A stretch of 64,000 nucleotides of DNA, taken from assembly GCF_041886205.1 (NCBI RefSeq), contig NZ_CP169031.1; one strand, 5' to 3'. The position numbers and the translations under genes were made by a program. The notes under the pieces were generated by a model. The model saw only the letters and a program-made list of their open reading frames with translations. It made no database searches and was not told the origin of the DNA. Positions 1 to 1,108 of this stretch are shown piece by piece; positions within the stretch are counted from its first letter, which is position 1, and each line of letters starts with the position of its first letter. This DNA is from Escherichia coli. GTDB lineage: Bacteria > Pseudomonadota > Gammaproteobacteria > Enterobacterales > Enterobacteriaceae.

Positions 1-1108
1 ACAGGCCTGTTGCCGGTGCGACCATATCGTGCAGGCACCAGTACCTTCAAAACCCATTGCACGCAGTTATGCCGGAGCGGGGCTTCTGGCCCATGTTGTC
101 ACCGGGAAATATGCAGACCATCTGCCGTTATACCGCCAGTCAGAAATATACCGTCGTCAGGGAGTGGAGCTGAGCCGTGCCACACTGGGGCGCTGGACAG
201 GTGCTGTTGCTGAACTGCTGGAGCCGCTGTATGACGTCCTGCGCCAGTATGTGCTGATGCCCGGTAAAGTCCATGCTGATGATATCCCCGTCCCGGTCCA
301 GGAGCCGGGCAGCGGTAAAACCCGGACAGCCCGGCTGTGGGTCTACGTCCGTGATGACCGTAACGCCGGTTCACAGATGCCCCCGGCGGTCTGGTTCGCG
401 TACAGTCCGGACCGGAAAGGTATCCATCCACAAAATCACCTGGCCGGTTACAGCGGTGTGCTTCAGGCCGATGCTTACGGTGGTTACCGGGCGTTATACG
501 AATCCGGCAGAATAACGGAAGCCGCGTGTATGGCTCATGCCCGGAGAAAAATCCACGATGTGCATGCAAGAGCGTCCACCTACATCACCACGGAAGCCCT
601 GCAGCGTATCGGTGAACTGTATGCCATCGAGGCAGAGGTCCGGGGCTGTTCAGCAGAACAGCGTCTGGCGGCAAGAAAAGCCAGAGCCGCGCCACTGATG
701 CAGTCACTGTATGACTGGATACAGCAACAGATGAAAACACTGTCGCGTCACTCAGATACGGCAAAAGCGTTCGCATACCTGCTGAAACAGTGGGATGCAC
801 TGAACGTGTACTGCAGTAATGGCTGGGTGGAAATCGACAACAACATCGCAGAGAACGCCTTACGGGGAGTGGCCGTAGGCCGGAAAAACTGGATGTTCGC
901 GGGTTCCGACAGCGGTGGTGAACATGCGGCGGTGTTGTACTCGCTGATCGGCACATGCCGTCTGAACAATGTGGAGCCAGAAAAGTGGCTGCGTTACGTC
1001 ATTGAACATATCCAGGACTGGCCGGCAAACCGGGTACGCGATCTGTTGCCCTGGAAAGTTGATCTGAGCTCTCAGTAAATATCAATACGGTTCTGACGAG
1101 TCGCTTAC
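1..1108 (+). mobile_element. IS66-family insertion sequence, right-hand portion (truncated by window start)
   Basis: Transposase ORF reads in from the window edge; the element end is inferred from GTAAGCG (reverse complement cgcttac at 1102-1108) about 30 bp after the transposase stop, as recalled for IS66-family terminal inverted repeats. Confidence 0.65.
2..1078 (+). CDS. IS66-family transposase, C-terminal part (partial, 5' end outside window)
   Basis: Protein ([11 protein letters not shown]...[34 protein letters not shown]) matches the IS66 TnpC family as recalled; the frame is open to position 2. Confidence 0.85.

Follow-up and report, generated by a model that had tools for sequence, protein, structure and literature searches.

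In P1, in P7 and in most of the related contigs that were fetched, the invertase gene cin and the invertible C-segment lie on the left-hand side of the lysis (lyd) genes. In the 64,000-nucleotide stretch of Escherichia coli DNA analysed here (hereafter the window), that side is occupied by the end of an insertion sequence (IS). The first-pass annotation, made from the letters of the sequence, had pointed to the P1 arrangement and proposed that the insertion may have displaced or separated the cin functions. The locus therefore raises the question of how the IS came to stand beside the lysis genes, and what its arrival would mean for cin.

RESULTS

An IS66-family element ends at position 1108

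IS66-family elements are characterized by the genes tnpA-tnpB-tnpC, by imperfect terminal inverted repeats that start from 5'-GTAA(G/C)CG, and by an 8-bp target-site duplication. Positions 1–1108 of the window, on the plus strand, correspond to the 3' 1108 bp (element positions 1592–2699 of 2699) of such an IS and are 99.91% identical to a complete copy in the phage record LC645450 (positions 910–3608, 2699 bp). An open reading frame (ORF) that enters from the left edge occupies positions 2–1078 of the plus strand and encodes 358 amino acids without a stop, equivalent to codons about 166–523 of 523, plus the stop codon, of the DDE transposase gene tnpC, the frame of which is intact. Its product matches the Pfam profile DDE_Tnp_IS66 with 345.5 bits (cut-off 23.1; E=3e-103) over profile positions 1–283 of 284, and the short IS66 C-terminal element DDE_Tnp_IS66_C with 59.8 bits (cut-off 30; E=3e-16). 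These Pfam matches identify the transposase as a TnpC of the IS66 family, in agreement with the gene type that had been read at the start of the window on first pass.

The right terminal inverted repeat (1087–1108, plus strand) closes with CGCTTAC at 1102–1108, the reverse complement of GTAAGCG, and the terminus recognized in the first-pass annotation coincides with the right end of the aligned reference copy. The window IS terminates with ...GAGTCGCTTAC at 1108. The LC645450 copy terminates with the same GAGTCGCTTAC, starts with GTAACCGGCTC, and is bracketed by the 8-bp duplication CTAAAATC. When the reverse complement of the right end, GTAAGCGACTCGTCAGAACCGT, is set against the left end taken from the reference copy, GTAACCGGCTCATTTAAACCGT, 16 of the 22 positions agree. 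A further full copy, in the plasmid pRHB16-C13_3 (CP057733, positions 6410–9108), is 99.9% identical, is annotated with a 1572-bp tnpC, and has CATGCAGG as its 8-bp target duplication. Compared with these full copies, the window IS is distinguished solely by where it is inserted. The reference copies carry ORFs of 678, 348 (the TnpB accessory protein) and 1572 bp; this three-ORF layout and the 8-bp duplications were seen in copies elsewhere, the window itself holding only the final 1108 bp of the element.

Copies that are 98–99% identical to the window IS bear the PGAP name 'IS66-like element ISCro1 family transposase'. ISCro1 stands here for this PGAP family label, the reference copies measuring 2699 bp as against the 2824 bp reported for ISCro1. 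The element is abundant in the species: thousands of E. coli records contain near-identical copies (99.9%), and a query made up of the final 409 bp of the IS plus the adjoining flank gave matches in 2787 of the 5426 complete E. coli genomes, at a median of 2 and a maximum of 34 places per genome. A search across the window for a second copy that would make a composite structure found none, and 1–1108 is the sole copy.

A P7-type phage-plasmid carries the element

To the right of the IS, window positions 1109–64000 are colinear with positions 30321–95704 of the plasmid pRHB26-C21_3 (CP057446), save for three replaced segments. The last base of the window, 64000, corresponds to 95704, the last base of the circular CP057446 record, position 1 of which is the start of rep. 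The window probably represents the last 64 kb of a complete plasmid with a CP057446-type start point, and the comparison suggests that rep, par and the tail genes reside in its unseen first part. Judged by its sequence, the DNA that received the IS belongs to a P7-type phage-plasmid (Punavirus). Of 444 P1-like plasmids in PLSDB, no more than about 20 have a spacer and a lydC allele of the P7 type, and P1 itself first matches the window at the nucleotide level near 1515–1521, because its lydC allele is divergent. In most P1-like plasmids homology stops at the start of cin. A breakpoint shared among these plasmids was considered as the reason and rejected, the stop reflecting the divergence of P1-type from P7-type lydC.

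In the first of the three replaced segments (8513–10207), where pRHB26-C21_3 has an ompC-like porin gene, the window carries two minus-strand ORFs: one of 260 amino acids (8544–9326) without a Pfam match, and one of 281 amino acids (9333–10178; 225 amino acids as called in relatives) with a Tad2-like (Thoeris anti-defence 2) domain. This cassette recurs in many related contigs. In the second (21997–22887), a GNAT acetyltransferase-like ORF on the minus strand (22081–22689) stands in place of a gene for a SIR2-family protein. The third is a variable stretch of about 7.9 kb (33761–41667) that shares with pRHB26-C21_3 only a 263-bp match (34125–34387) and holds a complete type I restriction-modification system composed of hsdM (35587–37149), hsdS (37146–38354) and hsdR (38476–41592), the last with an EcoR124_C-type C-terminus.

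The lysis and dar genes to the right of the IS are intact

The distance from the end of the IS to the first gene on its right, at 1227, is 118 bp, close to the value of about 120 bp given in the first-pass annotation for a small ORF, with 463 bp separating the IS from lydA (1572). This ORF corresponds to lydC (1227–1511, plus strand), which according to the P7 annotation encodes a putative holin of 94 amino acids and which is present here as the intact P7-type allele. Since P1 also has a lydC, in the form of a divergent allele, the gene did not arrive as an addition with the IS. The lydC product has no Pfam match, and the exact protein is widespread, with 3491 indexed blocks in the assembly collection. 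The gene is followed, all on the plus strand, by the late promoter LPdar (1525–1543), placed by offset from the homologous P7 feature at 5417–5435; by the holin gene lydA (1572–1901; Pfam Phage_holin_3_3 and P7 annotation); by lydB (1898–2341; Pfam LydB, E=8e-104), the product of which is an antagonist of the LydA holin; by hdf/odaE (2319–2930; Pfam DarA_N and annotations in relatives); and by darA (2932–4851; Pfam DarA_N and DarA_C), which serves in defence against restriction and whose exact protein is indexed in 617 collection blocks. The true start of hdf/odaE is probably at 2328, since a 200-amino-acid product is called in relatives. All five genes from lydC to darA are intact, and the gene order lydC-LPdar-lydA-lydB-hdf/odaE-darA-ddrA-ddrB is that of P7 at near-identity, with Pfam matches that include the ParB domain of ddrB.

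A predicted operator of the C1 repressor, Op(lydC), is located at 1110–1126 (plus strand), where the window is identical to the corresponding P7 feature (5002–5018). This site was not relied on, as it agrees with the C1 consensus at 11 of 17 positions, a score not above that of neighbouring positions.

The junction lies three nucleotides from the cin start of relatives

Matches to IS copies end at 1108 for two copies and at 1109 for a third, while the megablast matches to P7, RCS47 and 20 P1-like plasmids all begin exactly at 1109, and over 1109–3000 the identity amounts to 99.6% with P7, 99.9% with RCS47 and 100% with pRHB26-C21_3. Uninterrupted relatives read CAGCAT GAT TTTTACTCTAATG, whereas the window reads ...GAGTCGCTTAC TTTTACTCTAATG.... 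Within CAGCAT, CAT represents the cin start codon, which is read on the opposite strand, and the base before 1109 lies 3 nt upstream of this codon in the 23 uninterrupted relatives, in which cin is present and diverges from lydC across a P7-type spacer of 121 bp. The first 8 bp of the target, TTTTACTC (1109–1116, without strand), are presumed to be the right copy of an 8-bp target duplication.

Megablast of 1–3000 against phages and plasmids, and of 700–1500 against complete E. coli genomes, returned no match that spans the junction. Consistent with this, the exact 32-mer and 22-mer across the junction had 0 matches in viral_contigs, in genome_contigs (two scans) and in metagenome_contigs. Look-ups of the exact LydC, DarA and DdrB proteins, with flanks of up to 10 kb, found no IS66 element beside lydC among the 30 listed places, which stem from the 24 longest-contig blocks out of 617–3491. 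Taken over all six collections searched, no place with the junction was recovered. Such uniqueness speaks for a repeat-induced misjoin of an IS copy beside lydC, as does the well-known tendency of multicopy IS elements to provoke misassembly. We nevertheless regard an assembly artefact as very improbable, in that the break falls exactly at the true IS terminus, as in real transposition and not as in a join inside a repeat, and the target is a plausible intergenic site.

The cin–lydC spacer of P1 is 127 bp long and holds, according to the P1 record, the predicted promoters P1cin and P2cin and a Shine-Dalgarno sequence. From the P1 annotation and an alignment of the P1 and P7 spacers, homologues of P1cin are located in the window at 1144–1174 on the minus strand, with a -10 element TAAAAT at 1144–1149 and a -35-like TTTCTG at 1169–1174; they rest on homology to sites that are themselves predictions of the P1 annotators. 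The GAG that aligns with the annotated cin Shine-Dalgarno sequence of P1 sits within 1109–1116, also on the minus strand. The P1cin homologues all lie between the IS and lydC, directed into the IS end. Because the IS ends 3 nt from the cin start and the promoter homologues remain on the lydC side, cin, if it still lies beyond the IS, is probably cut off from its predicted promoters. The earlier proposal that the functions may have been separated finds support in this sense, that the predicted cin promoter homologues stay on the lydC side.

On the IS side of the junction, tnpC is transcribed towards lydC. A generic sigma-70 promoter scan of 900–1700, an interval that includes the P1cin homologues, found no site, and the scan of the same interval for terminator-like hairpins gave a single weak one at 1088–1103, compared with 0.7 expected by chance. 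With the hairpin near the chance expectation, the scan is mute on read-through from tnpC into lydC.

The cin–lydA stretch is variable among relatives

The stretch from the tail-fibre genes to lydA is, to judge from the other IS insertions and replacements that relatives carry there, variable and tolerant of disruption. In pRHB16-C13_3 (CP057733, 6200–9420), the same IS is present as a simple insertion in a remnant of P1-type lydC. This plasmid has, in addition, a deletion that extends from cixR to 47 nt inside the P1-type lydC and leaves 7 nt of overlap where the two sides meet; the deletion took out the C-segment and cin, and the IS stands 42 nt further on. We considered whether pRHB16-C13_3 (86% coverage) descends from the same event as the window and rejected this, given its own target duplication, its P1-type lydC remnant and its separate deletion. 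The deletion itself might be an aberrant Cin recombination at a pseudo-cix site. A third element was found in the contig CAJSWZ010000021.1 (GCA_910573295.1), where an IS3-family element of about 1.3 kb with HTH_Tnp_1 and rve ORFs (1037–2368) lies in lydC, at a point equivalent to window positions 1438–1443 and with a 6-bp overlap of the flanking matches.

Three independent IS, namely the window IS, the pRHB16-C13_3 copy and the IS3-family element, are thus located within about 400 bp. One reading of this clustering is that the cin–lydA stretch is a preferred or selected landing zone for IS, in which the window IS may also create a hybrid promoter for lydC. The sequence offers a candidate that could face the putative holin gene: CTGACG in the IS end (1093–1098) precedes the TCTAAT of the target (1115–1120) by 16 nt, in a pair that overlaps the C1 operator predicted in P7, whereas the equivalent -35 position of uninterrupted P7 reads AGCCGA and does not resemble a -35 element. 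The pair is absent from the output of the generic promoter scan of 900–1700, and we give it low weight; the landing-zone reading as a whole appears improbable to us.

Other arrangements were observed among the related contigs. Four of them (L028, L032, L033 and L036) have no cin or lydC beside lydA and carry instead genes for a glycosyltransferase and/or a hexapeptide-repeat transferase, which adjoin a different tail-fibre module. In three others (L021, L024 and L026), the invertible region is multi-segment with Collar domains, and the recombinase is oppositely oriented. In a further four (L007, L010, L013 and L014), the P7-type cin-lydC-lydA-darA block lies inside contigs of 0.9–5.5 Mb; in the 5.5-Mb chromosome record CP178336, cin has lambdoid-prophage-like genes on its left in place of the C-segment. 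The occurrence of the block in such long contigs suggests chromosomally integrated or rearranged P1-like elements, or misassemblies.

A simple insertion probably placed the IS between cin and lydC

The best explanation of the junction, which we consider probable, is a simple insertion that uncoupled cin from its promoters. The common 2699-bp IS66-family element (tnpA-tnpB-tnpC) would have transposed between the divergent cin and lydC of a P7-type phage-plasmid and would have duplicated the 8 bp TTTTACTC. The left remainder of the IS, 1591 bp in length, would begin with GTAACCGGCTCATTTAAACCG and be preceded by TTTTACTC, and cin and the invertible C-segment would sit just past the unseen left end. 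Through the duplicated TTTTACTC, cin would retain its start codon and Shine-Dalgarno sequence without its native promoter, and the cin promoter homologues would stand 2.7 kb from cin, facing the IS. Expression of Cin would be expected to fall or stop and the tail-fibre segment to be fixed in its prior orientation, and late expression of the lysis and dar genes from LPdar should stay unaffected. This reading is favoured because clean 8-bp duplications flank both of the other IS copies that were read base by base and because the end of the window coincides with the end of the pRHB26-C21_3 record.

Alternatively, the IS may mark a rearrangement, in which an adjacent deletion or a recombination between IS copies removed or relocated cin and the C-segment, by way of fusion with another plasmid or of integration into the chromosome through the abundant IS copies; unrelated DNA or a truncated tail-fibre gene would then lie to the left of the IS. 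The left end of the IS, the second copy of TTTTACTC and the place of cin lie beyond the left edge of the window, and none of the collections searched yielded a place that spans the junction, so that the simple insertion is an assumption about this flank. Recombination partners are plentiful, with the IS in about half of the complete E. coli genomes and at up to 34 places in one, and relatives tolerate losing cin and the C-segment, as in pRHB16-C13_3, which is without the DNA from cixR to inside lydC. In line with this, L028, L032, L033 and L036 carry other genes where cin would be, and the P1-like sequence in contigs of megabase scale indicates that chromosomal copies may exist. By comparison, both other IS copies viewed at base level show clean 8-bp duplications, the deletion of pRHB16-C13_3 is separate from its IS, and the colinearity with a complete 95.7-kb plasmid to the final base fits an otherwise ordinary plasmid. 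On balance, we consider a rearrangement possible but rather unlikely.

Even if the insertion was simple, it does not amount to the neutral intergenic insertion of a complete element that the first-pass annotation had named as the outcome that would overturn its proposal, owing to the position of the IS relative to cin.

DISCUSSION

Both components, IS and phage-plasmid backbone, are well known, IS insertions in P1-like plasmids are routine, and the event is an ordinary IS insertion without departure from known behaviour. The point worth recording is that the IS ends 3 nt from the start of cin, and it has little significance beyond annotation. If cin is present, a single tail-fibre configuration, and hence a single host range, has probably become fixed in this phage-plasmid, because its invertase gene would be without a promoter region. 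Such a lock would be relevant to transduction or host-range work with the element or the strain. The insertion also provides a further example of the dispensable and variable cin–lydC stretch among P1-like plasmids.

P7 (AF503408) has the order cin-lydC-lydA-lydB-odaE-darA and the signals Op(lydC) and LPdar, which from lydC onwards correspond to the window, and both in P7 and in pRHB26-C21_3 a gap of 3 nt separates the cin start on the left from the position at which the window IS ends. P1 (NC_005856) shares the gene order, the divergence of cin from lydC, and the conserved -10 element TAAAAT and Shine-Dalgarno GAG, but it differs in having a divergent lydC allele and no IS at this place.

An insertion of ISCro1 in the regulatory region between the divergent genes afaF and afaA of E. 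coli ST131, located 440 bp from the start codon and given a size of 2824 bp, lowered afaA transcription by 2.5 log2-fold, and the promoter-fusion activity of the downstream gene was also lowered (PMC8764528). The afa case agrees in direction with the effect expected for cin and would argue against a strong outward promoter in the ISCro1 studied there. The two insertions are alike in that an IS of the same named family stands between divergent genes. They differ in locus, in the distance to the start codon (440 bp in the afa case as compared with 3 nt in the window) and in the length of the element (2824 versus 2699 bp), and given this difference in length, the afa ISCro1 and the window IS may not be the same element.
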